From: Podarcis liolepis
Lineage: Eukaryota
Length of the DNA stretch: 64,000 nt
NCBI GenBank assembly: GCA_965112155.1
Contig: OZ218100.1
Direction: 5' to 3' (one strand)
Below are positions 122 through 64,000 of this stretch, piece by piece. Numbering within the stretch: position 1 is the first letter of the stretch; each line of letters starts with the position of its first letter. The position numbers and the translations under genes were made by a program. Below the pieces are notes generated by a model. It saw nothing but the letters and a program-made list of their open reading frames with translations. It had not been told where the DNA came from and made no database searches.

Positions 122-675
122 CGAGGTAAGACGCTCTTATCGGAGCTCAAAGAATTTTTTTAACTAAATGCCTTTGTTGCCGGCTCTCCTCCTTCTTTTG
201 GATTTTATTTCCTTTCGCTACTTCGCTGGGCTTTTGAACATCTTATCTTATCCTCCTCGGTGCCGGGACTTAGTGAAGTTAATGAAGTTTTAACGAAGGC
301 TCTCAGACATTCCCTCCCGGGCATTAAGGCACTCCCTCCCAGTTTCTCATTGACTCCTCGTGACAAACTTATCCCAAGGATCTTTAAGGACCTCTAATGG
401 GCTTTTAACCCTAAAAACTATAAATTTATAAAACCACAAATTTCTCCCACCACCTCTAACTTCGTGGACCCCCAAACATCTCGGTTGTTTTAACAAACTG
501 AGAAGAAGGGGGGGGGATACTTCAAAGGAGTGCTCTAATTGGACCCAGTTTTAAACTCCTCGCAGCAGCCCAGCCAGGACTGAATGAGAACTGAATGAGA
601 TTGCGACCTGAGAACTTTAACACTCTATCACTCCGTTTAGAAGTCTGATCTCATTGATTTAAGAAGAATCTAGCA

Positions 676-2316
676 ATGAGAAGAGCCAAAAGACTCAGAT
701 GTTCTGATACAGAAACTGACGCAGAGCCCTCCGGTTTCAAACAGAGTAATCTAGATAATTACCTGCTACCTCAAAAACAGCACATATCTCCTCCCAAAAC
801 CTTCCTCAACTCTTTACATGGAAAGACAGTTGAAGAGATATCCCTAGGAATAAATGAGGACAAGGCTACTACTCCCATAATCGAGGCACAAGTGCTAATT
901 GATAGAAAGGTGGAGCTGCTGGAGGAATGCTGCCTAATGACTGCTCAAACAGTTCAAAAAATCTTTGAGCAATTACAAAACATCTCCAAGAAGCTGGATA
1001 ACCCAGATGAAAGGAGGCAACTCACTCCCTTTTTGCCATCCTTAATAAGCCCTGGAGACAAACAGAACAAATACAAATTTATACCTCTAAACCAACCAAA
1101 AACCAGAGGAAGCCCCCCTCACTCAGTCAACCTGATACTGAGGCCATGTGAGATTGTTCTCCACATTTTTCCATACAGAGGGCCCCTACCTTACTGGGAG
1201 TCATCCTTCTGGGCCAGACACCATCTAAATCTGCTCCTAGGCCTTGAGGGTGGAAGCATCGACCTAAAAGCAGTCAAGAGGCTCACTAACGATGGACATT
1301 CCAAAAAAGTACTACTAAAATTTGGTAGTCATAGAATTCCAACCAAAATCCTAAGGGTAAAGGCTTATTTAGCCCAGAAAGGAATTATTCCGCGTCGACA
1401 CTTTGAAGATATATCACTCAGACCATTGATTGCATCTAAAAGACAGAACAAGATGAATAAGGCCATTCTACCAGAAGCCGACATCTGCCCTACTCCCGTG
1501 GAAGAACCCAGTAGATGGGAGAAACCGCAGCCAGCTACCCGGGAAATCACACAAGAAAAATCCAAGCTCTCAAACCAAGCGACTGTAGCATCAAACAACA
1601 GCCTCGCCCTTGATACAATAGACTGGACAGTCCCAGAAGAAGTAGATCTGCTGAGTAACTTTACCAAGCTACCAGACAAAGAACAAATAAACATACTCAG
1701 TAAATTGACGAAACTACAGGCCAGATTGACCGAAATTCACCAACAAGGGCAACAAAATGCAGTAGAAACAATACACAATCAAACTTTACACTTACCAGCC
1801 CTCTCCCCTAAATGCATAGTCAAAAAGAAAGCCACCAATGGAACTTTCAAATGTATAGATGCAGACCTTCAAATCCAGCCTCCTTTAGAATATGAAATGG
1901 CAAGGAAAAACTCCAGCAATGAGACCACAAATTCCTGGCTGAGATATCAGATACTAGCTCTAAACGAAATAGGTACCCCTTATTTAAGTACTACAAAGGA
2001 CTCTAACATTGCCGAACAAAAGATGACCTCCAACAGACCTGATTCACTGAGCCCAACATCAAATGAGGCCAAAGAAATGGAACTAGAGACTGAAAACAGT
2101 CCTACTGTCCACAACAGTCTACCAACCACAGAAATTTCTCAGGAACAAGGAATAGTTAAGGAAGAAAACCAAGAAAGGGAGGAAATTTTAATTTCCCGCA
2201 CTTTAAAAAAGAATCTAAAAGACCCACCATTATGTTCCCCGCCGAAAGCAGCGACAAATGGCTGTATCTGCACAAGACAAAATCCCTCGCTGGACTCAAT
2301 AACAGAACTAGAATGA
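676..2316 (+). CDS. LINE ORF1 protein (546 aa): coiled-coil-like segments, a putative RRM-like region and a long low-complexity C-terminal half
   Basis: ATG-initiated open frame upstream of ORF2 inside the TSD-bounded element. IDLKAVKRL...KKVLLKFGS...KILRVKAYLAQKGI resembles the pattern of L1-type ORF1 RRM/CTD. Confidence 0.85.
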   Translation: MRRAKRLRCSDTETDAEPSGFKQSNLDNYLLPQKQHISPPKTFLNSLHGKTVEEISLGINEDKATTPIIEAQVLIDRKVELLEECCLMTAQTVQKIFEQLQNISKKLDNPDERRQLTPFLPSLISPGDKQNKYKFIPLNQPKTRGSPPHSVNLILRPCEIVLHIFPYRGPLPYWESSFWARHHLNLLLGLEGGSIDLKAVKRLTNDGHSKKVLLKFGSHRIPTKILRVKAYLAQKGIIPRRHFEDISLRPLIASKRQNKMNKAILPEADICPTPVEEPSRWEKPQPATREITQEKSKLSNQATVASNNSLALDTIDWTVPEEVDLLSNFTKLPDKEQINILSKLTKLQARLTEIHQQGQQNAVETIHNQTLHLPALSPKCIVKKKATNGTFKCIDADLQIQPPLEYEMARKNSSNETTNSWLRYQILALNEIGTPYLSTTKDSNIAEQKMTSNRPDSLSPTSNEAKEMELETENSPTVHNSLPTTEISQEQGIVKEENQEREEILISRTLKKNLKDPPLCSPPKAATNGCICTRQNPSLDSITELE

Positions 2317-5300
2317 CTAAATGCTGTCAACCAGCCATCAACTCAAAAACGGATCCTACGCTTGCTGTCCTGGAATATTGCAGGGTGGGGAAACAAAGAC
2401 GGAGACCCAGACCTAATGAACTTCCTTAAAGATTTTGAATTAATACTTCTACAAGAAACATGGTCAACTAGAGATATTAAAATCAATGGATTCACCTCCT
2501 ATACGAAACCCGCAGTGAAAACAAACACGAAGGGCCGGCCGAAAGCAGGGTTCTGTTGCATGATCAAAGACAACTTAGGGTTTGAAATCAAGCAGCTAGA
2601 AAAATGCTTACCACTTGCACAAGCTCTACTTTTAACCCAAAAAGACGATACTTTGCTACTTGTAAATGTCTATATCCCCCCAACCAAAAACAACAGCAGC
2701 AGTGAAAATTGGTCACAACTAACCTTTTATATAGAAAATTTGACCGATAAATACCCAAATGCCTCACTGATAATAGCAGGTGATTTTAATGCCAGAGTGG
2801 GAACCAACAATGAACAACTATGTAGCAAACTAAATTGGAATACTGATAATGATATCGCACATGCCCTGAAAATAGGACGATTCTCCAGAGATAGGGTTGT
2901 AAACAACGAAGGCTTACGCCTACTTGAATTATGTAACAACTTTAATTTGCAGATTGTGAACGGTTCAACAAAAGGCGATAGAAGCGGGGAGTTTACATAC
3001 TTCTCCCCCCGAGGATGCAGTGTCATCGACTATATTCTTGTCCCTTATAATATTATAAATTCAATCATGGACCTCAAAATTGGAACGCGTACTGAAAGCG
3101 ACCATCAGCCATTATTGTTGTCTATTAACTTAAAGGACGAAACCAAAATAACCAAGTACAATATCATAGAACCTTCTCAATACAAACAAATGACCCAATT
3201 AAAATGGTCCCAGGAAATGAGTGCAGCAGTGGGGCAAAAACTTACAGCCAACCTGAGAAAACAAGTATTATCCAACTTAAAGACCACTAATCCCCACAGT
3301 GATATTCCGAAAATTTATAATGAAATCTTCCAAATGTTCGTAGAGCTTAGTACTCCACCTAAAGTTTGGGTACTTAAACATAGCGCTAGCCCTTGGTTTG
3401 ATGATGAATGTTTCCAACTAAAAAGAAAGCTGCGCCAAACATTTAAAAATAATCGCGCTAAACTAGAGCCCTCTTATCTTGATGAAAAAAGACAATACCA
3501 TTACATTCTGGCCGAAAAGAAACAGAAATATGCAACCCAAAAATGGCTACAATTACTCGACTCAATTCAGAGTAAAAACAACAAAGCGTTCTGGAACCTG
3601 GTGTACGGAGGATTGAAAGCCGAAAACCAACTAACTCTACCACCAATTGCAGAATCCAAATGGTCCCAATACTTCACATCTGTATTTAACAATCTACACA
3701 GTGAACTCAAAGGAAATGAGACCACTAAAAATAAAATCAATAAACTCCAGGAGTGGCCAAGGGTAGAAGAAGAGGAAATTAGAGAGATAGTTAAAAATTT
3801 CAAATCGGGGAAATCTCCTGGGCCAGACGGTCTACCAATAGAATTATTCAAGACCTATATAGATTGGTGGGCAGAACCCTTAGCTCAATTGTTTACTCTC
3901 ATAGATAAATATGGGATCATACCTGAGATATGGTTAAGATCAATAATTATCCCAATCTTTAAAAATGGCGACCCAAAAGAACCAAGGAATTACAGACCAA
4001 TAAGCCTATTATCAGTGATAGGGAAAATCTACGCTAAGCACCTTTTATCTAAACTTCTTACCTGGATGAAAAATCTAAATTTACCAGGGAAAGAACAAAT
4101 AGGTTTCTCCAAAGGTTGCTCTACATTAGACCACTGCCTTATACTTATGCATTTGGTTGAAAAATATAGATCCCAAAGGCAATCTAAGATATATGCTGCT
4201 TTTGTAGACTTTCGTGGTGCATTCGACTCAATTGACCTCCCAAAGCTGTGGAGGAAACTCGCAGAATTAAAAATTGATCAGCGCTTATTGATTCTAATAC
4301 AAAATCTATACTCTTCCAATACCTGTCAAGTCAAACTTAACACCAAAGGTCACCTTTCATCAGACATCCCAAATTCGAAAGGGGTAAAACAAGGGTGTAT
4401 TCTCGCTCCCTTTCTATTTAATTTATTTTTATCAGACTTGCCAGATCACCTCCAAAAAATAGAATCACATGCCCCTAAACTTAATCAGAAACCAGTTCCT
4501 CTCTTATTATACGCAGATGATGCTGTCCTACTATCATTAACGAGCTTGGGTCTGAAACGTCTTATATCTTCTCTGATCCTTTACTGCGAATGTAACAAAC
4601 TCTCTATAAATTATGAGAAGACAAAAATTTTGGTCTTCTCGAATGGTTGGAAATTAGAGAAATGGAAAATAAGAGGGCAAGAAATCCAACAAGTGAAAAT
4701 CTATAGGTATCTGGGAATTTTATTCCAGAGCAATTTAGGGTGGGCAAATCATCGCACAAATGCCATAAAACAGGCAAAGTGTACCTCATCAGCAGTTGCC
4801 CGTTTTTATTATCAGAAAGGTAATCAATTTATTCCTGCGGCCAATCAGATATTTCAAACAAAAGTGCAATCCCAGATATTCTATGGAATCCCGCTATGGG
4901 TCCAAGCATATAACAGTGATTTAAAAAAGATTCACTCCAGCTTTCTGAGACGTATTCTTGGACTCCCAGCTGTGATTAAATATGAAACAATGTGTGCAGA
5001 AATAGGCATACACACAATGGAATATTGGGCATGGTCCACCTCAATAAAGTACTGGTTACGCTGCCATTTTCGCTGCCCTCCATCAAGTCTGCTCGCTGAT
5101 TTGCTCAAAGACTCCTATAAATCAAGATGGTATCAGTACCTCGAAAAAAAGATTGAATCTTTAGGCATCGAGCTGGAGCCCCTGTACAATTCTAATGAGC
5201 AATACATTTTCCATAATTTCCAAACTAGACTAAAGGATGTCGAGAGACAAAATATTATGGCAGCTGTAAACAAAATTTGCTCCCCCATATTCTATGATTT

Positions 5301-5661
5301 AAATATCTTAGATAGCAGAGCCAATTACGTCACTAAATTAATAATCCCAGCCCAACGTAGGGCTTTTATGCTGGCCCGTTTGAATGTTTTTCCCTCAGCA
5401 TTTGTCAGGGGAAGATATCAAAACATTCCTAGAAACAAGAGATTCTGCAGATGTTCTATGAATGTCCCGGACACTGTAGAGCATATTCTCTTTCATTGCC
5501 CATTGTACAGTATCCCACGTCAACGCGTGCTGTCCCCTCTTTTGGGTGGTCTGGAACCCCAGCAAGGTGAATGTGTGGGATTCTGCCTATCCGACGTCGA
5601 CCAAAGGGTAACGGCGGGGGTAGCCGAGTTTTTGGTAGCAGTCCTCCAAGGAGCAGGTTAA
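2317..5661 (+). CDS. LINE ORF2: apurinic-like endonuclease + reverse transcriptase + C-terminal CCHC knuckle (frame open from 2317; no ATG before the first EN motif)
   Basis: APE motifs SWNIAG, LQETW, NVYIPP, GDFNAR, IDYI, SDH. RT motifs YRPISLL, FVDFRGAFD, GVKQGCILAPFLFN, YADD, YLGI. C-terminal CRC...TVEHILFHC. No stops or frameshifts. The ORF-track start at 2362 is TTG; the first in-frame ATG is at 2416. Confidence 0.96.
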   Translation, partial: LNAVNQPSTQKRILRLLSWNIAGWGNKDGDPDLMNFLKDFELILLQETWSTRDIKINGFTSYTKPAVKTNTKGRPKAGFCCMIKDNLGFEIKQLEKCLPLAQALLLTQKDDTLLLVNVYIPPTKNNSSSENWSQLTFYIENLTDKYPNASLIIAGDFNARVGTNNEQLCSKLNWNTDNDIAHALKIGRFSRDRVVNNEGLRLLELCNNFNLQIVNGSTKGDRSGEFTYFSPRGCSVIDYILVPYNIINSIMDLKIGTRTESDHQPLLLSINLKDETKITKYNIIEPSQYKQMTQLKWSQEMSAAVGQKLTANLRKQVLSNLKTTNPHSDIPKIYNEIFQMFVELSTPPKVWVLKHSASPWFDDECFQLKRKLRQTFKNNRAKLEPSYLDEKRQYHYILAEKKQKYATQKWLQLLDSIQSKNNKAFWNLVYGGLKAENQLTLPPIAESKWSQYFTSVFNNLHSELKGNETTKNKINKLQEWPRVEEEEIREIVKNFKSGKSPGPDGLPIELFKTYIDWWAEPLAQLFTLIDKYGIIPEIWLRSIIIPIFKNGDPKEPRNYRPISLLSVIGKIYAKHLLSKLLTWMKNLNLPGKEQIGFSKGCSTLDHCLILMHLVEKYRSQRQSKIYAAFVDFRGAFDSIDLPKLWRKLAELKIDQRLLILIQNLYSSNTCQVKLNTKGHLSSDIPNSKGVKQGCILAPFLFNLFLSDLPDHLQKIESHAPKLNQKPVPLLLYADDAVLLSLTSLGLKRLISSLILYCECNKLSINYEKTKILVFSNGWKLEKWKIRGQEIQQVKIYRYLGILFQSNLGWANHRTNAIKQAKCTSSAVARFYYQKGNQFIPAANQIFQTKVQSQIFYGIPLWVQAYNSDLKKIHSSFLRRILGLPAVIKYETMCAEIGIHTMEYWAWSTSIKYWLRCHFRCPPSSLLADLLKDSYKSRWYQYLEKKIESLGIELEPLYNSNEQYIFHNFQTRLKDVERQNIMAAVNKICSPIFYDLNILDSRANYVTKLIIPAQRRAFMLARLNVFPSAFVRGRYQNIPRNKRFCRCSMNVPDTVEHILFHCPLYSIPRQRVLSPLLGGLEPQQGECVGFCLSDVDQRVTAGVAEFLVAVLQGAG

Positions 5662-6138
5662 CAACGAAAACCACTGATTTTATATGTATATATATATATA
5701 TGTATGTAGCCAACTGCTGCCTTTTATATATATCTCAAAGCTTTTATATGTTATTTCCTCTTTTATGGTTTTATTTGCACAATGCCTAATAAAGGTTTGA
5801 TAAGTAAGTAGTAAGTAACTCAAATGGAAAGCTTGTTTCAAAGTGCAATTCCCTGCTGGAAAAAAATATCCTATATAAAGACGATCAAGCAATATTCTGC
5901 CATCAATATTTAGAATATATTCAAAGGGAGAAGGGACACCCAGAATTATCGTGCAGTATATTTGTTTCTAGAGAAACCTATTCTGCTTATTGAATAATTT
6001 AAATTTTAATATAATACCAAACCTCCCAATTTATTTTGTTTCTTTGTTTCAATCTGCCTCACACACACAAAAACCCACAACAATCCCACTGGACTTCCTC
6101 AGATATCTAGGTGATAATTAGTTTTCATAAACAAGTTG

Positions 6139-6139
<1 letters not shown>

Positions 6140-6180
<41 letters not shown>
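6140..6180. repeat. (TA)n microsatellite, left flank of the Penelope palindrome
   Basis: Direct read. Confidence 0.95.
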
Positions 6181-6182
<2 letters not shown>

Positions 6183-6258
6183 TTTCGTAGATTTTCACGG
6201 GTACAGGAATGCAGGTTTTGGTGTCTTCGGGTGTCTTCCCGTGTAAGAGTTGGGGTGT

Positions 6259-6303
6259 CTAGGCGACGTTTCGACGAGGTCTCACTCGTCATCTTCAGGC
6301 TGG
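6259..6303 (-). ncRNA. Minimal type I hammerhead ribozyme motif (Penelope-associated)
   Basis: Reverse complement reads CUGAAGA-U-GACGAG-ugagac-CUCGUC-GAAAC-GUC. Confidence 0.75.
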
Positions 6304-6384
6304 TGCTTTCGGCTTCTTGTTACTGGAACAGAGCAGGAACTGTTACTGGAACTGCTCTGTTCCAGTAACAAGAAGCCGAAAGCA

Positions 6385-6429
6385 CCAGCCTGAAGATGAC
6401 GAGTGAGACCTCGTCGAAACGTCGCCTAG
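6385..6429 (+). ncRNA. Minimal type I hammerhead ribozyme motif (Penelope-associated)
   Basis: CTGAAGA at 6390-6396; stem II GACGAG/CTCGTC at 6398-6415; GAAAC at 6416-6420; GTC at 6421-6423. Stem III is essentially absent and stem I is weak. Confidence 0.75.
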
Positions 6430-6472
6430 ACACCCCAACTCTTACACGGGAAGACACCCGAAGACACCAAAA

Positions 6473-6474
<2 letters not shown>

Positions 6475-6519
<45 letters not shown>
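6475..6519. repeat. (TA)n microsatellite, right flank of the Penelope palindrome
   Basis: Direct read. Confidence 0.95.
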
Positions 6520-6521
<2 letters not shown>

Positions 6522-8585
6522 TTTTTGTCTTGCATCCTCAATTATTTTTGAAACCCATAAAGTAATTCTTCAAACATTTTTTATGATTATAATGATGATT
6601 CTTTAGTTTTACATTGCTGTTGAAGGCAACAAAAACTCCACATCATTCATACTGAATAAATAAGGAGTAATTTATGCAACCATATTTTGTTGTTGTAGTT
6701 GCAATTATTGCATGATAGTTTGGCCGTCTGCAGTACTTCTCACCTGTGGCTCATCATGAACAGAACCTTGCATTAGAACATTAGTAAGTGTCATAAAAGA
6801 CCAGAAGATGTTAGAGATGCACTTTCCTTACGACAAGTTAGTGCACGATTGCAGCTTTGCGTAAGGTGAAATAAATAAAATGAGAGAGAGTTTCTTCCAC
6901 TCCCTATTTATTTCCCTCACCCACCCACCGACGCACGCAAAGTTGCATTCATGTAAATTATATATAAGTGCTAGATGTGAGTTACCTGTACTGCAAATCA
7001 TTGGGAACATAAGAAACCCACATTTTCTCTCTCTAAAAACCCCCCTCTTAAGATCAAGAATATCTTTTTTATGTCTGATATGTCCCGATTACTAATAGAA
7101 GCATATTAGACTCCATTTTCCTTTCAAACGTGCAACCATTTGTCCTTTTAAGATGTCTACAATTTAGGGAAACATTTCTTCCAAGTTATTCCCCACCCTA
7201 ATCTTCTCTATCTTTGGGGGTAAAAGAGGTTACTGGTCCAAAGCATACTCGTGTATTTGCAATTACAAGTCCAAGATATACACCCAGACCTTCCATGATT
7301 TGTCTGAAACAGAGCACTCTTGTTGGAAAAAGAAAAACAGCATGAGCAGTCACCTTTAATGTTAAATTGAGAATCACTCTGTGTTCTAAATTACATGAAA
7401 AGAATACAAAAAATATTTCCCCTATGTATTGTTCTACGAAGGGGAAGCACTTACAATAATTAAAAAGATGCCTACAAGAAAATTCATTAGGCAATCTTTT
7501 ATCACAACAGCAAGAGCAGAAAGTCAGTGGTGCACAATGTTTAATTAATCTGTTAAAATAAGGATATTAATACAATGATGATCGTAAAAATCGTATTAAC
7601 ATTCAGACTCCTGCAGAGATTCCATTAACCTTGCCTTCAAGCAACAGAAGCATATGTCAAGTTGTTCCAGCCTCTATGGTACAAATGGGCAGAATATTTC
7701 TTAATCCACGAACCAGTAACATCAGAATCTTTAAATTAAAACAAGCCACTGCTACCCGAGATGGCTCTGTGAGGTCATTGCCATGAACTGTAAGAGGTAA
7801 TCATTCATAATACATGGGCAACGTGGATTACATTAAATGAGAGCAGCACATGTACAGTATATGCACATCTGGAGCAGATGAGCTAAAATATATTTTAGAA
7901 AACAAATTGCAAAGTTCCTTACTGTATGGGGAAACACTTTTCTGCTGAAATCCTATTTGCATGCAATTGGACTCATTTCTGAATAGGATAGCACTATTAA
8001 ACATATTAAAAATGTGTTTTCTAAAAATACATTTCCTAACCAATTGTTCCACCCTGTCCTATTCATTTGCCTGCCCAAATTAATGGACTCAGGCTTCTGT
8101 GACTGTACCTGGAAACCTTCTTCATGTCCCTGTCACCCGTTTATCTGCTATTATAAGAAATATTGTAAATAACGTTCATAAAGTTATACTCTTTTTAAGC
8201 TTTCAGAAAGGCTCTGTGTGTTCTTAATAAATAAAGGCTATTTATCTTATATACTTGATGAAATATTGAGATAAAAAACCCATTGCAAACAAATGTAAAT
8301 GCATATGAAATATACATAATACTTTAATAGAATCTGATTACAATTAGAAACGAACAGTATGTATCTATTTATATACAAAGCAGAATGATGTAAAGACAGT
8401 GTTTATACTGCATTAGCAAAATACCAACCAACAAACTGAACAAATGCCTCTCATAAGATATTGTAGAGCACAAAAATGTCAGCAACCTAAACAAATATGT
8501 TTATAAATATCACAAACTATAACAAACCAAAAAATATAGCAAACTGTGACAAACCCCAAATGCAGATGGACCCTGATCTTTCTCA

Positions 8586-15728: not shown

Positions 15729-15986
15729 TGAGTGCTCACTGGAAGAACAGACCCTGAATACTTTGGCCACCTCATGAGAAGAGAAGACTCCCTGGAAAAG
15801 ACCCTGATGTTGGAAAAGGCTGAGGGCACAAGGAGAAGGGGACGACAGAGGACGAGATGGTTGGACAGTGTTCTCAAAGCTACCAGCATGAGTTTGACCA
15901 AACTGCAGGAGGCAGTGGAAGACAGGAGTGCCTGGTGTGCTCTGGTCCATGGGGTCACAAAGAGTCAGATACGACTAAACAACAAC
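15729..15986 (+). mobile_element. Bov-B (RTE) LINE 3' fragment
   Basis: YFGHLMRREDSLEKTLML...RRRGRQRTRWLDSV; (CAA)n tail; TSD ATATGAGAACT at 15718-15728 and 15987-15997. Confidence 0.92.
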
Positions 15987-16635: not shown

Positions 16636-16853
16636 GTCAAAGTGCAAGTAAATAAATAGGTACCGCTCCGGTGGGAAGGTAAACAGTGTTTCCGTGAGCT
16701 GCTCTGGTTTCACCAGAATGCTGGCCACATGACCTGGAAAAACTGTCTGTGGACAAATGTCAGCTCCCTTGGCCAGTAAAGCGAGATGAGCGCCGCAACC
16801 CCAGAGTTGTTCATGGCTGGACTTAACTGTCAGGGGTCCTTTACCTATACCTT
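16636..16853 (+). mobile_element. Sauria SINE, 5'-truncated
   Basis: Matches the 3' two-thirds of the other copies in the window (GTGCAAGTAxATAAATAGGTACC...CCTTTACC). Confidence 0.85.
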
Positions 16854-18934
16854 TTTTTAGCGATTACCTTAGATGAACCAGTCCCCTTTACCTTAGTTCA
16901 CAGATCACACCTTGAAGCAAAAATAGAAGTATCAAAGGTCTTCTAGTCCTGCAAACTTGTGATTCATCTTGGCACATCTAAGGCTTTATCTCTTTGACCC
17001 ATGGCTCACCTTGCATACTGAAGCCTAGTGATGAACTAACAATGCAACATAAGCCGTTGCATAGCTTGTGCTTTTAGCACCTCATGTACTACCGCACATG
17101 AACAAATGTTTTCTCACACACTGTTTATTGATATCCTTAATTAATAACTCATGGCTATGATATTGACCTGAAACTGCTGTAATGTGTGGAGAAATATTTA
17201 ATTAAACTGAATGGGGAGGAGGCAACTCTGTGATGATTATGTTGATGGTGATAATTCTCTCCTCTCATTAGCTTGCAGTTTTAGTGGCCAGTGTCTCAAA
17301 GGAAGGTGGCAAGTGGGGAGGGAAGACAGCCTAACAAATTGATGCTAGAATTGCAAAAGCACTCTAACATACACAGGCCTGGCCAATTAAGACAGAATCA
17401 ATCCCATTAATGGAATCTTCTTCGCAATGCAAGGTAGTTTCAGTGTTATTGAAAGTACAGAGGAATTGACAGCTATAATTACATCTAACCATATGATTCA
17501 AATGAATAAAGCCCCATGACTGCAGTACAAGGTGTCTCATAAAGAGTGCAGTTGTTAAAAACGAATTGGCCTGCCAGCAAGAGTAATTGAATTTAGGACT
17601 TTTTCTTACTAATTCAGAATAGCTAATGAGAAAAGGCATGCTCTGGATCCAAGACGATGAGCTCCACCCTTTTTGAAAGCTGCAGTGGATTTGTCATTCA
17701 TGTATATATTTACAGCAAATAGAGTTTGCTCTTTTCTCTCTGACTTTTCTAATGGCAATATAAACTATACAAACATTTAGATGGTGCAAAAGGGACAAAA
17801 AAATGAATGTTTTGCTTTTCCATAGTGTCTGGTATTTGTCATAATACACAAGGCATGCTTTCTTAATTATGTGAAGAGGGGATGTAAAGGTTAGATAGCA
17901 GCACCTTGTTTTCAAATGTTCTCCATCCATTAATGAGGTAAGAAAGTGCATTCAAAAATTACCACGGAGGCAGGGGCATGTTGTGATGTTCCCCTGAATG
18001 ATGTGGAGAACAGGAAATTGTTGTACTTAGCCTACTTATGAGGTGCCTGGATGATGTTAGTGTCCTTTATTTCACGGTACATCTCTGGTGGTCTGCACTT
18101 TGCAGTCTTTCTGGGTGCACACTCTTCTTTTCTGAATCCCAATGACATTGTTGGCTGAGCTTTCCTGTAAGTGGGGGAAGCAGGCAGCGTTGCCTACAAT
18201 GCATCTGATATTTTTTAATGACCTCTTTTTACTTCTAAAATAATCAGCATGGATTTGAATGAATGAATGAGGACTTCCCTTAAAAACAAAACCATCAAGA
18301 ACACCAATCTTGGGGACCAATCCTCCCATGGTGGTGGTTGTTTTCTTCAGATCAGGATGTGTGGTGGCTGAGGTGGCTGCAGAGCACTAGAGAAATGTGT
18401 GATGGTTAGAGAAACACATATACTATGCTTTGGTGCTTCAAAACAATGCAGTAAGTTCAACTGCAGTATGGAAGAGGAAATTTGTTTCATTTCGTACTTC
18501 AAGGCAACCTACCTAATTCACACTTTCTGAAACAAGAGGTGCACTGAAGCACAACCATTCTTTGAAATTCACACGCACCTGAATTTTGCAATAAAGTTCT
18601 CAGGCCAAATAATGCGTGCAAAAATGCTCCTACTAGTGTAAAGTGGTCAGAACAAAGCATATATTAGTGAAAATAATATGAACTATGAACTATAAATGGT
18701 GGACAACGTGCTTTGCAAAAATGTGCATGTTAGGCAAAGTTGCATGAGGGACGGATCTAGTGTGAAATTAATGAAGCTTAAGCTTCAGGGCCTCTAATCC
18801 CGGAGGGGTTCCAGAAGTTGCTTTAGTCCACATAGTTTTAAAATGTTGCTTTAAAAAATGCATCATGCATGTATATATCATTCCCCTAATTATGCCTAAA
18901 TTTCACCCCTCCCATAACTCTGTTATGTCCCTGT

Positions 18935-22127: not shown

Positions 22128-24934
22128 GCCTAGCCCATCTGCTAGCCAGTACCATTGTCCCAGTCAATATGCATTGGATACTTTTGATGAGGAGGCAAAG
22201 ATCATGGGCTCATCGTGGTGCAGAATGATGTCATGGGCCCATCGTGCAACCTGGCGAGTGGGAAAGCCTTTAAGCTGTGCCATAAACTGGCACTCCAAGG
22301 AACCCCCACTTACTACTCAGCTATGGATCTGGCCTCATTCCTCCCGCACCTGAAATGAAAACCCTATGTGACCAAAGTTTATAGAGCCAAGCAATTAGAT
22401 AACCAACTAGCAATATTGTGGTGTGGAAGTTTAAAAACCTGCAGCCGCTCCTTCTGTGACCAGTGGTTGGGGTCAGGTTGGTTTCCCTCTTGTCATTATG
22501 TTCTTCCTGGGAGGTAGATGGCATGGCCTGTGGTCACTTAGCACATAACTTTATTGAGAATCTGCCTAGAAGCGTCCAGCATGAACTTAGACCAGATTTT
22601 TTTACAAATGCTTTGAAATGTGTTTCTAATTACTTTAATTTCCTTGTGGTATAAAAGCTATAGCCAAGTTGTGTTTTTATCTCATTGCTCATTATTTATT
22701 TGGGGGAGAGAAACCATAAGCCCAGATTTATAGACAGCAATACATGGCTTAGCTCAGCATAAAGATTGAGGGAGAAGCCAGCGGACCACAGTTTTTGCTC
22801 TGTGTACACTCATGCTTCCTCATTCACATTTAGTCGTGGTTTGACTTAGTGTTACATCTGAACTCAGCTCTTGCCCTGTCCTTCAGAACAGTGTACATAC
22901 TGCCCTGAAAATGGCAGACATTAGCAACATGAATCGGAGGACCTGGGAATTCATTTGAGTTGTATCAAAAATGGTGATACGGTATTCAGGTTGGCTGAAA
23001 GCCATTAGGAGAGAGAATGAAATACAACCCACAAAGTTGTGTATCCTACCCAAATAAATTAATTATAACGGGTTAGCATTTAAAATATGGATCTTGGAAA
23101 ATCTCTGTTTTGGGTTGCTAAGTAATTGAGTCTGAAATTTAGAAACAAAATAATTTTATTTGTTGAGATCCTAGCTCATAAGAATGTAATACAGCACTAA
23201 AATCACAAAAGAAAGCAGTCAAGTAAAGCAGGTGGACCCAAGTTTCATAAGAGCTAGTCTGAAATTAGAAAAGGTGAACCTTGACCAAAATGTGATATAA
23301 AATTTTACAATATTTATAAATCCAAATTATTTATTTCTGAACCATTAGGTCAGAATAAACCATCCCAACTACAGAATCTAGTTCTGAATATTAATTTCAT
23401 ATACATAGACTATGTTAAATAAATCAGCTTGTTAGAGAAGGCCATAGATTTGACTGCATATTAAAACTCAGGTAGAAGTGGGGGGGGGAAATATATGTCC
23501 ATTAAACCACAAACAGCAGTCAATTATGAACTAGCAATTATAAGATATCCTTCCTCCAATAATATTAATTTTTAAAATTTGGACAGTTCATCATAATAAG
23601 CAATGTTTGTTGGAATACTATGGAAAATTTTGGGTAAGTACCGGTACATAAAATTCGGTTTATCACGTTAGGCTTCTTGGGAAATTATTTATTTTATTTA
23701 TCTTATGTCTCTTGTATGGGTCATCTATTCACCTTGTGGTGCTTTGAAACTATGATAGCCAAAAGCTTTACTATGCTGACCCCATAAATAATGTAACACA
23801 TGCCCTAGGAAGGCCTTTCAGGCCCAGCATTTTGGGACTGTTGGAATGATTTGCACACACAAACAGCACACAGGCTTTTGAGATGAGTTAAATATTTACT
23901 GTTTTGCTGCTGGTTTTTTGCTGCCCTGTTTTAATAATGCTTATAATATTGTTTCAGTGTTTTAAATTTATTTTTCTGAGCTGGTTCAAGGAACCTTTTG
24001 GTATAAAATGTGGGATTTAAGTTTCAAAAATAAGATTATCAATACCCTTCTTGAATCGGTTAAGATAATACTAAGCTTTTGTGAATCATACTATGATTTA
24101 TTTTCAAAGAACTGTTAACAGATTGCAATAAATGCAGGATAGAAGTCATTTTGCCCAATATGGTTTTGACAATACACAGTTCATGTTTCTCCCTCTTCTT
24201 TCTCTCTCTTTTAAATCTATTAACAGTGTAATGGATATTACTGCTTTTAGGGAAACCCTACTGAATTGTAAGCAATCTTCTGTTTTGCAGATTGAATGCC
24301 AGTTCCACCATTATTCTGTCCTTTTACAGCACTGAATGCTGCTATTTTATGTCTGTAGGAGTGAGAAATGAAAACGGCAGATTTATGACAACATGATGCA
24401 TTGACTCTACCCACATGAATATCATTAGTGTCACACTCTATCTTCTCGTCTTGTGGCAAGTTATATTTTTTAGCAAAATAAAAAAGAAAAGAAAACCTAA
24501 TTCGGACTTTTTTTTTCTTTTGCTTCTATGCTGCATGATGTTTAGATCTTTAAATCCCAACAAAACATATTCAAAAAGAATGAAAAATACTTGTGTTTGC
24601 CTGAATGCAGATATCACAACCATTAATATGAAAGGGATCTTAAATCTACACTTGTGTTATCAGTATTATTATAGGTTAGTTCTATTATTTCCTTGTGTAA
24701 TAATTCTAAAAATTAAGTCTCTTGCCTGAGAGCCAAAATTTCCTACTCTGTCTGATTATGAACTGGCCCACAAAGTGAAATCTATAAAAGCTGCAAACAT
24801 TCCTTCCCTCAGGATCCAAAAGGCTCTGCCTCCTTTCTATTGGACCAGAAGGAAGTAGCTTCCTTGCAGTTGTGGTTACTGCCACCATCCTAATAAGCTG
24901 CTCTTGCAGGAAGAGGTTGGGGCAGCTTCTGAAG

Positions 24935-25070
24935 CAGGCATAGGCAAACTCAGCCCTCCAGATGTTTTGGGACTACAACTCCCATGATCCCTAGCTAACA
25001 GGACCAGTGGTCAGGGATGATGGGAATTGTAGTCCCAAAACATCTGGAGGGCCGATTTTGCCTACGCCTG
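24935..25070. mobile_element. Palindromic hAT MITE
   Basis: ~55-bp inverted arms CAGGCATAGGCAAA...TTTGCCTACGCCTG; TSD TTCTGAAG/TTCTAAAG. Confidence 0.85.
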
Positions 25071-26422
25071 TTCTAAAGCCTATCAATTCCATTTCCCATT
25101 TTCTTAATGTAAAAATAAGTATATAAATAATATTTCTGTTTGTTCCACTTTGCTTTCAGTGGTGCCAAATCAAGGGAATTATGGTTGAGGAGGTCCCCAA
25201 CCGGCCTGAGATTGTAACGCTGAAAAATAAAGCACTTTGAGGATAATGATTAACAAAAATGGGTTATCGAACCTATTTATTAATATATTTATCAACTGCT
25301 TCTCTAGCTTAAGTTGTGGCTAATTACATCTTTAGTCATCAGAATAAAAATATCTGTTGCTTGCTTGAATTTCCTGCATGTTTCTAAGGTGGTGTGTATA
25401 ATGCTTACACCTAAATATATGCAGTCAAGGAAGGTGCCATTTTGAATGCGCTTTACATCTCCTTGTAATTTAAACAGTATGGACTTCTTTCACTGTGGGA
25501 GTGGAAATGAAAAGACTGACTCTGGTGGCTTTTTTTTAATATCTTGAAAGAAAGCAGGACAATATAAGGACGGCATTTTGCTCATTATATTTCTATAATG
25601 CATTATTATCATTTGGCATTTAGTTTGTAAATAAAAGTGTTGCAGTTTACATGCTCATTTGTGCATTCTCTGACCAGGCAGTTGCAGGAGTGTAACAGAT
25701 AGTCTTGCTTCCTTTGACAGTATTATTGCTAGGCAGTGTGTGTTTGTTGGGGGAGAGGGTGGGGGGTTTAGTAACACCATTTGGGCAAACGCCCTGTTAC
25801 AACTACTTGATAATCTGCATTTCAGGGACCATAATAGCCTCTTAGACTTACAACCAGAGTGTTTGTAGGTGGCTACGTGTCTGGCCAACATTTGCCAGGT
25901 GTGCCAGCTATCTGAGGATTGGAAACGTTCTTCCCCTTCTCAATAGCAGTGAATGGAAGAAGTGTGTCATAGTTTCAGTTGTTGCATTTCTCTGGGGATA
26001 AAGGTATTGCAAGCTCCTTTCTAACCATTAGCTGCATAAACTACGTGTTATGGGGGTGTTGCTTGACTCACTTCTTATGTGACACCATGCATAGTCACAT
26101 CCTGTACATGAATTGATCACGAAAACACATTTCAATATTAATAACATTGAGGTCACACATCTTGTTGACTAAGGCTGTGTACATATTCTATGCAGCTAGT
26201 CTCAGTATGGAATCATTCATGCTTGTCACCAGCATGCTGCTCTCAATCTAAATATTCTACACTCTGCCACCCACAATGGTGGGTAGGGGCTGCTTGACAT
26301 CTATGTGAAAACTCTGCCCTTGATTGGGCTTCCCCTGCCTTTTTCTCTCTGCACATGCAGCAGGTGAATGATGGAGGAAGTGGTTATTTCAGTCTTGGTA
26401 TACACCAACCTACAATATCATT

Positions 26423-26854
26423 TTCCCAGTAGTGATGTATGGAAGTGAGAGCTGGACCATAAAGAAGGCTGATCTCCTTCTTGATGCTTTTGAATTATGG
26501 TGCTGGAGGACTCTCTTGAGAGTCCCATGGACTGCAAGAAGATCAAACATATCCATTCTGAAGGAAATCAGCCCTGAGTGCTCACTGGAAGGACAGATCC
26601 TGAAGCTGAGGCTCCAATACTTTGGCCACCTCATGAGAAGAGAAGACTCCCTGGAAAAGACCCTGATGCTGGGAAAGATGGAGGGCACAAGGAGAAGGGG
26701 ACGACAGAGGACAAGATGGTTGGACAGTGTTCTCGAAGCTACTAGCATGAGTTTGACCAAACTGTGGGAGGCAGTGAAAGACAGGAGTGTCTGGTGTGCT
26801 CTGGTCCATGGGGTCATGAAGAGTCAGACACGACTAAACGACTAAGCAACAACA
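26423..26854 (+). mobile_element. Bov-B (RTE) LINE 3' fragment
   Basis: MYGSESWTIKKAD..DAFELWCWR.LLRVPWTARRSN.SILKEISPECSLEG; (CAA)n tail; TSD ACAATATCATT at 26412-26422 and 26855-26865. Confidence 0.93.
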
Positions 26855-39593: not shown

Positions 39594-39910
39594 CTGTGGG
39601 TGGTGCTGTGTGTTAAACCACAGAGCCTAGGGCTTGCCAATCAGAAGGTCGTGGTTCGAATCCCCGTGACAGGGTGAGCTCCCATTGCTCAGTCCCTGCT
39701 CCTGCCAACCTAGCAGTTCGAAAGCACATCGAAGTGCAAGTAGATAAATAGGTACCACTCCAGCGGGAAGGTTCACCAGAAGCGGCTTAGTCATGCTGGC
39801 CACATGACCCGGAAGCTGTATGCCGGCTCCCTCAGCTAGTAAAGAGTTGTCCCAGAGTCGTCCGCAACTGGACCTAATGGTCAGGGGTCCCTTTACCTTT
39901 ACCTTTACCT
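39594..39910 (+). mobile_element. Sauria SINE with internal deletions
   Basis: tRNA-like head with B box GGTTCGAATCC; (ACCTTT)n tail. Confidence 0.88.
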
Positions 39911-42433: not shown

Positions 42434-42789
42434 GCGGGTGGCGCTGTGGGTAAAACCTCAGCGCCTAGGACTTGCTGATCGCATGGTCAGCGGTTCGAAT
42501 CCCCGCGGCGGGGTGCACTCATGTCGTTCGGTCCCAGCGCCTGCCAACCTAGCAGTTCGAAAGCACCCCCGGGTGCAAGTAGATAAATAGGGACCGCTTA
42601 CCAGCGGGAAGGTAAACGGCGTTTCCGTGTGCTGCGCTGGCTCGCCAGATGCAGCTTGTCATGCTGGCCACGTGACCCAGAAGTGTCTGCGGACAGCGCT
42701 GGCTCCCGGCCTCTAGAGTGAGATGAGCGCACAACCCTAGAGTCTGGCAAGACTGGCCCGTATGGGCAGGGGTACCTTTACCTTTACCT
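42434..42789 (+). mobile_element. Sauria SINE (second subfamily), full length
   Basis: A/B boxes, (ACCTTT)n tail, TSD AACACCCTGAAC at 42422-42433 and 42790-42801. Confidence 0.92.
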
Positions 42790-42801
42790 AACACCCTGAA
42801 C

Positions 42802-54379: not shown

Positions 54380-55160
54380 GCCAGGGGACTGCCATCGTAA
54401 CAGGGGAGGGAGGCAGGGATGCCGCTGGGATACAGGGAGCCGCAGAAACTTCTGAGGAGCAGTTCCCCATCCAGCGGTGGGGAAAGCTGTCCCCGCACTT
54501 CCAGTGGAGAAGAGAGGGAAGGGGCCAGCCAAGCGAGGAGAGGGCTCAAAGATGCTAGCCCGGCTGGCCAGGAGGCACACACTCCACTTCTGTCGCCCAG
54601 CTTGCACTGAGGGGTAAAACGCAAGGAGAGGAGGTGGAGATTTGGGGTGTCTAAGTTCTTAAAGGTCGTGACTGACTCTGGGATTGCGGCGCTCATCTCG
54701 CTTTACTGGCCAAGGGAGCCGGTGTACAGCTTTCGGGTCATGTGGCTAGCATGACTAAGTCGCTTCTGGCGAACCAGAGCAGCTCACGGAAACGCCGTTT
54801 ACCTTCCTACCGGAGCGGTACCTATTTATCTACTTGCACTTTGACGTGCTTTTGAACTGCTAGGTTGGCAGGAGCTGGGACTGAACAACTCACCCCATTG
54901 CAGGGATTCGAACCGCCGACCTTCTGATCCACAAGTCCTAGGCTCTGTGGTTTAGCCCACAGCGCCACCCGCATCCCTATGTCTAAGTTCTTATGTTAGG
55001 GGGAAAGCCAGAAGGGGCCACTCCCGGATTCTGCAAGTGACTAAGACAGACATGAACTTTGTGTATCTGCACTGTAAATAGTTTGCACAATAAAACCTGT
55101 AAAAGACAGGTCAGAGTCCTGCCTGGTTACTCACGAGCAACCACCACACAGCATCTGACA
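54380..55160 (+). mobile_element. Possible solo LTR interrupted by a Sauria SINE
   Basis: TG...CA ends and AATAAA near 55089; no convincing TSD. Confidence 0.35.
54662..54979 (-). mobile_element. Sauria SINE
   Basis: Reverse complement of the consensus seen in the other copies; 14-bp TSD TGTCTAAGTTCTTA at 54648-54661 and 54980-54993. Confidence 0.92.
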
Positions 55161-61697: not shown

Positions 61698-62086
61698 GGG
61701 ATGTGGGTGGCGCTGTGGGTTAAACCACAGAGCCTAGGATGTGGGTGGCGCTGTGGGTTAAACCACAGAGCCTAGGACTTGCTGATCAGAAGGTTGGTGG
61801 TTCGAATCCCCACGACAGGGTGAGCTCCCATTGCTTGGTTCCAGCTCCTGCCCACCTAGCAGTTCGAAATCACGTCAAAGTGCAAGTAGATAAATAGGTA
61901 CCGCTCCGGCAGGAAGGTAAACGGCGTTTCCGTGCGCTGCTCTGGTTTGCCAGAAGTAGCTTAGTCATGCTGGCCACATGACTTGGAAGCTGTACGCCGG
62001 CTCCCTTGGCCAATTAAGTGAGATGAGCGCCGCAACCCCAGAGTCGGCCACAACTGGACCTAATGGTCAGGGGTCCCTTTACCTTT
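61698..62086 (+). mobile_element. Sauria SINE with a 38-bp tandem duplication of its 5' end
   Basis: Full SINE body; the unit GGATGTGGGTGGCGCTGTGGGTTAAACCACAGAGCCTA occurs at 61699-61736 and 61737-61774. Confidence 0.92.

Positions 62087-62088
<2 letters not shown>

Positions 62089-62158
<70 letters not shown>
62089..62158. repeat. (CA)n(TA)n microsatellite; Penelope insertion site
   Basis: Direct read. Confidence 0.95.
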
Positions 62159-62161
<3 letters not shown>

Positions 62162-62206
62162 GGTTTTGGTGTCTTCGGGTGTCTTCCCGTGTAAGAGTTG
62201 GGGTGT

Positions 62207-62251
62207 CTAGGCGACGTTTCGACGAGGTCTCACTCGTCATCTTCAGGCTGG
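62207..62251 (-). ncRNA. Minimal hammerhead ribozyme motif in the Penelope 3' region
   Basis: Same CUGAAGA-stem II-GAAACGUC motif as at 6385-6429. Confidence 0.75.
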
Positions 62252-62482
62252 TGCTTTCGGCTTCTTGTTACTGGAACAGAGCAGGATCTCAGTGTTTGAG
62301 TTCCTATAAATACTGTTGAGGGGTGTGGTGTATAGCCTCCGACGTTCTGGGCAGAGAGGAAGTTCCCAGGTTAGTGTGCCTTTTCTTCTTTTGTTCCTTA
62401 ATTACTTGAGGGATATCTTGAGTGATTTCTTGAGTGATATTCTGAGTACCACTTAGGAGGGTCATTAAGTGTGGATTAGTTG

Positions 62483-63710
62483 CTAAAGCTTTCGTGTCTT
62501 GACCTCTTGAGCTTGTGAAGAGTTTTTCTGAGAAGATGGCTGTACTGCACTTAGTTGTGCTCTGGCTTGGCTTCGTGTATAGGGGCGAGCTGTGGTTTTG
62601 TGCCCTGTGCCAGCCAGATCTGTGTAGGGATTGCAGGGGGGTGCAGCATCCGGAGGTGCCACTATGGTTTGGCTACTGGATGGTGTCTGTAATTTATCTG
62701 TGGAGAGGGTCTGGGTTTGGGTCTGGTGTGGTTGATTGGTGATGGCGTTCTGTGTGCCTCTGGTTCTGGTGTCGGTTTTTGTGGGGAGGGCTAATTTCCA
62801 GATGTCTGGCAGGCGGGACGTGTCGTCACGCTTGTTCATGTTGTGAGGGTGTTTCTCTATCTCGATGGCTTCCATGATTATTCTCTTGTGGTGATGTTCC
62901 ATGTTAAAGAGCAATTTGGAATCTGCAAAATTAATTTCGTGTCCTGTTTCTTTCATGTGTTGGAAAAGAGAGGAAGTTTTTTCTTCTTTTTTGACGGCAT
63001 TCTTGTGTTCTGCGATACGTGCATTTATTCGTCTGTTTGTTTGTCCAATGTACGTGGCTGGGCAGACTTTGCAGGGTATTTCATAGACCCCTTGGTTTTC
63101 CAACTGGATTTTATCTTTGGGGTTTCTGAGGATATTGGCTATTTTTTGGTTGGTGCAAAAGGCTGTTTTGATATTGTGTTTATGGAGGATTTTGCTAATT
63201 TTATCTGTAGTGCCCTTGATATAAGGAAGGAGGGCCATGCCATTGTTTTCTTCTGTGTCTTGGTTTTTGGGGGGTGTTTCTTTTTGGATTAGCTTCGTAA
63301 CCCTGTTTTGCTGGTATCCATTGGCGATTAACACATTTGAGAGATTCTGTAACTCAGTTGTCAAGTGGTCTTTGTCAGCCAGGCGTTTGGTTCTGGAGAT
63401 GAGAGTCTTGGCTACGGAGTTTATTTGTGCAGGGTGGTGGTGTGATTGTGCATGTAAGTAGCGGTTGGTGTGTGTTTTTTTCCGGTAGATAGTGTGTCCT
63501 AGGGAGCCATCAGGTTTTTTGTAGATTAGGACGTCAAGGAAGGGAAGTTGGTTGTTGGCTTCTATTTCCATAGTGAATTGTATTTTGGGGTGTAGGCTGT
63601 TGAGATGTGTGAGGAAGCTATCTAGTTTTTCTTTCCCGTGTGGCCAAATTACAAAGGTGTCGTCAACATATCTGAGCCAAAGTTTGAGTTTGTGTTCTGA
63701 CTTGTCTAAA
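62483..63710 (-). CDS. Penelope RT (from just before YVDD) + GIY-YIG endonuclease, N-terminally truncated
   Basis: WLRYVDDTFVIW, IQFTMEIE...LPFLDVLI, YRKKTHTNRYL...SHHH, LPYIKG, GVYEIPCKVCPATYIGQTNR.I..RI.EHK, EAIEI. Frame uninterrupted. Confidence 0.93.
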
Positions 63711-64000
63711 GAAAACATTGGACAAACAAACAGACGAATAAATGCACGTATCGCAGAACACAAGAATGCCGTCAAAAAAGAAGAAAAAACTTCCTCTCTT
63801 TTCCAACACATGAAAGAAACAGGACACGAAATTAATTTTGCAGATTCCAAATTGCTCTTTAACATGGAACATCACCACAAGAGAATAATCATGGAAGCCA
63901 TCGAGATAGAGAAACACCCTCACAACATGAACAAGCGTGACGACACGTCCCGCCTGCCAGACATCTGGAAATTAGCCCTCCCCACAAAAACCGACACCAG

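Follow-up and report, generated by a model that had tools for sequence, protein, structure and literature searches.

The window analysed here, 64,000 nucleotides of Podarcis liolepis DNA, contains at positions 6140–6519 an insert of 295 bases that consists, as a mirror image, of two short Penelope end pieces joined head to head. The question raised by this locus is whether it represents a distinct non-autonomous family of retrozyme-like elements, as proposed in an initial annotation made from the sequence alone, or a trace of ordinary Penelope insertion. We conclude that the insert is real, young and ordinary: a known pattern of insertion in its shortest form, and very probably not a new family. 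Its architecture has already been published, and the palindrome itself is probably a dead by-product. The features on which the analysis is based are listed in Table 1.

Table 1. Coordinates of the palindromic unit and of the related long Penelope copy in the window (element positions are counted from the A of the ATG).
Feature	Position	Strand	Remarks
Left (TA)n tract, (TA)20.5	6140–6180		Inferred target/primer of the left arm
Penelope tail, 32 nt, +81 to +112 from the ATG	6181–6212	−	Left arm only; open frame continues
Left arm, element positions −46 to +80	6213–6338	−	Identical to long copy 62157–62286
Left-arm candidate minimal type I hammerhead core	6265–6298	−	ATG at 6292
Junction insert, 13 nt	6339–6351		6341–6352 is a templated repeat of 6319–6330
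Right arm, element positions −44 to +79/80	6352–6475	+	Without tail
Right-arm candidate minimal type I hammerhead core	6390–6423	+	ATG at 6396
Right (TA)n tract, (TA)22.5	6475–6519
5'-truncated long copy, same element	62157–63714	−	RT thumb and GIY-YIG ORF 62483–63714, 3' UTR
Long copy, arm reference		−	TATA-like box 62312, hammerhead 62246; terminates within (AT)n, at +82/84
Inverted partner of the long copy	63715–64000	+	286/286 identical to 62766–63051; runs off the window

The core of the unit is formed by two arms of 124 nt (6213–6336 and 6352–6475) that are 100% complementary and lie between (TA)n tracts, as the initial annotation had described. The unit folds at −270.6 kcal/mol, a value matched by 0 of 200 shuffled sequences. 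Some details of the earlier description need correction. The arms were thought to be truncated at the same 5' position, but the left arm starts at −46 (6338) and the right arm at −44 (6352), ends that are near and not identical. The proposed 15-bp spacer is the distance between the 124-nt arms, but only 13 nt of it are non-element sequence, and these are not random: 6341–6352 copies 12 nt of the adjoining arm (also the inverse of 6359–6370), with a rough chance expectation of 3e-5. Together with the arm, the spacer makes a small snap-back with a 12-bp stem and a 6-nt loop (6341–6370), and the final microhomology at the junction is 1 nt only. At its outer end the left arm is 32 nt longer than the right, extending to +112 where the right arm stops at +79/80, and the unit is therefore asymmetric. 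This tail was absent from the initial description, and we rate it as the most informative feature of the unit. A target duplication is unreadable in TA, which is found on both sides.

The only other match to the arms in the window is the end of the long Penelope copy (62157–62289). Neither arm has a mismatch to this parent wherever the parent, which ends at +82/84, covers it, and the description of the unit as hammerhead-bearing Penelope ends joined head to head is borne out by this identity to the end of an ORF-bearing copy. The protein of the long copy is 97% identical to P0001, which has an RVT_1 domain (E = 4e-16) and a weak GIY-YIG match; the GIY-YIG domain of the long copy itself (E = 5e-4) is below Pfam's cut-off. 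P0001 in turn shares 47% identity, over 563 aa, with P0017, an Anolis protein whose N-terminus agrees, when compared by eye, with the RNA letters of the Anolis carolinensis Poseidon element PAc (Fig. S1 of PMC11167929). From its protein sequence we place the parent with Penelope/Poseidon, because no Neptune-type CX2-5CxxC linker is found before the GIY-YIG domain. The parent also has a TATA-like box, which would lie 26 and 28 nt upstream of where the two arms have their 5' ends but is missing from the unit. We consider this box putative because the Drosophila Penelope promoter, located in the pseudo-LTR, has been called TATA-less (PMC2377424). The long copy also has a head-to-head junction of its own (63714/63715), which is asymmetric, with ends about 660 nt apart.

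The unit had been reported to lack coding sequence, which is not the case, as the arms carry 37 and about 27 of the first codons of the element ORF. The ATG sits at stem II of the hammerhead in each arm, and its frame is the only one of three that is open through the tail. The last codons of the tail resemble the motif that precedes the conserved N-terminal helix in homologues. Homology of the 37-aa peptide was not significant in a first profile test (176/1000 shuffles), and an anchored post-hoc test gave 187/5000 shuffles. The assignment of the ORF start is based mainly on the open frame and on the parallel with PAc.

Each arm includes a candidate hammerhead core, and the two point outward (6390 on the plus strand, 6298 on the minus strand), in agreement with the initial annotation. 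In the right arm, the core at 6390–6396 is followed by an unpaired U (6397), a 6-bp stem II and GAAA at 6416–6419; helix III is palindromic and has no loop, and the cut is predicted after 6423. The conserved core, the unpaired base after position 9, G10.1–C11.1, the long stem II and the palindromic 15.2–16.2 are all present, matching the feature list given for minimal hammerheads in PMC4209133. Helix I is weak, with two adjacent pairs and a third past a bulge, where the minimal Penelope type has 4–5 bp, and it is absent from the minimum-energy fold of monomer and dimer. The ribozyme call rests on motif inspection because Rfam gave no hammerhead match: no family reached the gathering score over the window, and none of 57 weak matches at 5900–6800 was to a hammerhead model. 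Reading the Rfam matches at E-value level as miRNAs was rejected, since they are generic hairpin matches far below the cut-off. An exact search of metagenome contigs for the hammerhead core returned 0 matches. Minimal hammerheads are described as needing a same-strand partner or a protein (PMC4209133, PMC11167929), and the PAc ribozyme cleaved only with protein present (PMC11167929). A read-through transcript of the unit in either direction would make the antisense arm first, so that the motif would be buried in duplex.

We compared positions 5750–6950 with four of 24 listed public sequencing runs, namely the contigs of X1 and X3 and the RNA of a relative in X23 (bulk) and X21 (single-cell). 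Arm depth exceeds flank depth by about 9,000–23,000-fold in X1 and 15,000–42,000-fold in X3, ratios that do not represent a copy number. Copies pass into (TA)n at +84 in at least 21 X1 contigs, at least four X3 contigs and at least 12 X23 reads. Inside the arm, X1 has at least five other head-to-head junctions, each in a single contig: four joints, at a depth of 22–62 compared with a flank depth of 37–52, and a loose end. All five among the matches listed differ from the junction of the palindrome, and in three of them the two ends lie no more than 7 nt apart (p about 0.02, uniform null), as expected for two cDNAs off one RNA. Left out of this count are a 70-nt skip (6243>6314) without splice ends, which we treated as a deletion, an X3 match that goes back, and an end at 6352 of uncertain true position. 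X1 and X3 each contain the two unique flanks as far as the TA tracts; among the matches listed in these runs, no contig spans the site or the spacer, and no contig or joint bridges an empty site.

The 5' ends of other copies fall at −46 to −32 in 8 of 15 cases among the matches listed (scan p 0.013). When one end per event is counted (n = 10), p is 0.03–0.6, and we regard clustering of 5' ends just below the TATA box as a weak hint. No pile of RNA starts at −46 is among the matches listed for X23 or X21, where at least 41 and at least 29 reads, respectively, continue upstream, probably as read-through from many copies. Likewise, in the 12% and 6% of reads covered, neither run has begin or end piles, or joints, of monomeric linear or circular RNA. 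All three element ends in the window (6140–6180, 6475–6519 and 62121–62158) abut (TA)n, as do most listed element ends in X1, X3 and X23, although the protein is without the cysteine linker proposed for microsatellite targeting by Neptune. The (AT)n in which the long copy lies (62087–64000) immediately adjoins (AC)n that marks the end of a SINE.

The mechanism that best explains these observations, with a probability of roughly 0.55, is dual priming, in which reverse transcription starts on both strands of the target and the ends are joined afterwards. From the identity to the long copy, the end positions and the junction, all of which are read directly, we infer the order of events, the enzymes and the inactivity of the product as follows. 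In one recent integration of a very abundant Penelope/Poseidon-type retroelement, the element protein would have opened a (TA)n tract by nicking its two strands, and each of the resulting ends would have primed reverse transcription, once at a far internal start site (+112, yielding the tail) and once at a near site (+80). The two cDNAs would have ended some 45 nt before the ATG, probably where the RNA that served as template for both has its 5' end, and repair copying 12 nt from nearby may have joined their inner ends. The outcome would be the standard head-to-head insertion in a minimal form, dead and without an ORF.

We favour dual priming because the outer ends at +112 and +80 match the two published internal RT start sites of PAc. 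On AT-rich DNA, PAc nicks the two strands and extends each of them, and its RT starts at two internal sites, one of them at +111 to +118, with the tail between them (PMC11167929). In the unit, +112 falls at the codon homologous to the RT start of Anolis Poseidon. The biochemistry is an analogy from a 47%-identical protein. Several observations count against dual priming: fold-back or central collapse would be just as likely to give near-symmetric junctions, the junction microhomology is 1 nt, RNA starts do not pile up at −46, neither an empty site nor a contig across the spacer is among the matches listed, and the junction of the long copy is asymmetric by about 660 nt.

The main rival is a single priming followed by fold-back, which we consider unlikely, though it deserves more weight than the other alternatives. 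The cDNA of the tailed arm would stop at −46, slip while re-copying 12 nt, fold on itself and then serve as its own template; cutting or capture of its second end at +80 would allow it to be ligated to the TA on the opposite side, giving a dead product of the same parent. The local snap-back made by the spacer is suited to such a step, near-symmetric junctions recur, palindromes at inverted junctions have been read as self-priming (PMC3846280), and the tail has been ascribed to endonuclease resolution (PMC8557442). However, copying would have to break off 32 nt early and do so precisely at the second RT start site, which is also the usual end of ordinary copies, whereas dual priming gives the +80 end without an extra step. 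The initial annotation had offered both extension of the two ends by reverse transcription and fold-back of one cDNA, and these remain the two best explanations, with the former preferred.

A longer head-to-head insertion that later collapsed by central deletion, through cruciform cutting and end joining with a templated junction, is improbable. Long head-to-head copies do exist, as at the 63715 junction; templated inserts are typical of repair, and long palindromes are unstable. Nevertheless, the arms are unchanged relative to a young long copy, which leaves little time for collapse, and starts at −36 and −38 also occur in simple copies that have no inversion (loose ends 6360 and 6358).

Slightly less probable still is a self-standing retrozyme-like or MITE-like family copied as a unit, as proposed in the initial annotation. 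Non-autonomous Penelope derivatives exist (bioRxiv 10.64898/2026.07.22.740005), and animal non-LTR retrozymes (PMC7229834; bioRxiv 10.64898/2026.07.22.740005) share with the unit a short length of about 300 nt, an in effect non-coding sequence, a type I hammerhead and Penelope ancestry. Unlike the unit, retrozymes are same-strand tandems of at least two units that release monomers and circles; this defining arrangement is missing here, where the pair is inverted with one ribozyme per strand, which would be buried in duplex, and the TATA box is lost. The arms show no family-specific divergence from the ORF-bearing copy, and the other junctions listed differ in five of five cases. Moreover, the arms end at +112 and +80, yet the template RNA of PAc must reach +172 (PMC11167929). 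The unique flanks of the palindrome have zero depth in the two RNA runs of the relative, a weak argument as the relative may lack the insertion. The idea of a distinct family is therefore not supported. Least likely of all is an assembly or library fold-back artefact, in favour of which is that none of the contigs listed spans the site or shows the spacer. An artefact would mirror flank and ends, whereas here each side has its own unique flank, found as far as the TA tracts in X1 and X3, the unit terminates at two distinct natural ends, and contigs of the runs contain similar junctions.

Dual priming also has a more specific version, which we put forward tentatively and hold to be possible at best: the arms could be 'strong-stop' cDNAs that were primed on both strands and ran off at a transcription start 26–28 nt below the TATA-like box. 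A dimeric Penelope protein would bind near the 5' end of an RNA promoted from the pseudo-LTR and prime at both internal sites, using the two ends of one cut. If this is true, mini-palindromes are a stereotyped relic of the step, so far unexplained, through which tandem and inverted Penelope structures arise. They would also be an inherent cause of the heavy ADAR editing of lizard Penelope RNA, which reaches A14 and A15.1. What speaks for this version is the weak clustering of 5' ends at −46 to −32, and the RNA reads have no start there. We found no paper with a strong-stop or dual-priming account of the inversion in a search that did not extend to subscription journals.

The unit has the marks of endonuclease-bearing Penelope insertions, namely a parent with RT and GIY-YIG, an adjacent inverted 5'-truncated copy and a 32-nt tail at one end. 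Head-to-head Penelope-like insertions described previously (PMC8557442, Fig. 2; PMC3846280) are alike in having inverted pseudo-LTRs that include the first codons, a tail of 30–40 nt at one end, a microsatellite target that hides the duplication and a small junction palindrome. In contrast to those, both copies here are too short for RT or endonuclease sequence, and the hairpin is nearly perfect. PAc is similar in the position of the ATG at stem II, the cut site about 26–28 nt further on, an outer end at +111 to +118 with a second end 30–40 nt upstream, the AT-rich target and the lack of a Neptune-type linker (PMC11167929). It differs in its protein (47% identity) and its target, as PAc is reported to cut an ATT motif (PMC11167929) and the family in the window appears tied to (TA)n. 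Dual minimal hammerheads on opposite strands, 100–700 bp apart, were noted in Schistosoma mansoni in 2014, and the authors relate such scattered hammerheads to truncated elements (PMC4209133); here the core starts are about 90 nt apart. The Schistosoma case concerns another clade and host, and the available text of PMC4209133 does not dissect ends or junctions.

The initial annotation predicted that a transcript from either strand would form a long dsRNA hairpin. If transcribed by read-through, the unit would zip into a 124-bp duplex, which would silence the ribozyme and make an ADAR substrate. In X23, at least 10 arm sites have A>G letters almost exclusively in one read orientation (114/328 compared with 4/533 site-reads), and at least 10 have T>C letters mostly in the other (72/519 compared with 7/278), the latter sites being individually weak; site-reads share reads across sites and are therefore not independent. 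The edited sites include the catalytic A14 and A15.1 (10 and 9 of 60). The same letters occur at about 1% or less in the X1 and X3 DNA contigs, which are not from the same animal as the RNA, and no A-to-I signature is found in the single-cell run X21. The X23 pattern is an A-to-I editing signature on both strands. It supports dsRNA for the family and not for the palindrome locus, from which there is no RNA in the two runs, so the prediction holds at the family level only. Heavy editing of Penelope RNA has been published for lizard and frog (PMC5625713, PMC10636886), and the A-to-I signature on element RNA is shared with those hyper-edited repeats. The available text of these two papers does not tie editing to head-to-head geometry, a link that we infer here. 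No paper stating a Penelope hairpin siRNA was found, subscription journals being outside the search.

As one dead insertion in a family of thousands of copies, the locus itself matters little. Its value is as a clean natural record, in another family, that the start sites used by PAc in vitro serve opposite ends of one insertion. It makes the origin of Penelope head-to-head structures testable by a genome-wide count of ends, and offers a structural reason for Penelope being the most edited long repeat in lizards.

Several other repeats occur in the window. An apparently intact non-LTR retrotransposon on the plus strand (658–5820) has a first frame of 552 aa and an AP-endonuclease/RT frame of 1114 aa; the short TAAG-type repeat in which it ends is some 320 nt to the left of the palindrome. 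At 5750–5810, 174 X23 RNA reads continue from the LINE 3' end into a single different flank, which indicates one expressed LINE copy elsewhere in the relative. A 155-nt self-complementary element (24925–25079, 83%) is presumably like a small hairpin DNA transposon. Five copies of a SINE-like repeat of 300–350 nt, 66–87% alike, are found at 16636–16854, 39595–39906, 42434–42794, 54665–54976 and 61737–62096, and we assume that they resemble the Sauria SINE. Two decayed LINE-end pieces (15729–15983 and 26372–26845) are ones that we take to be RTE/BovB-like.
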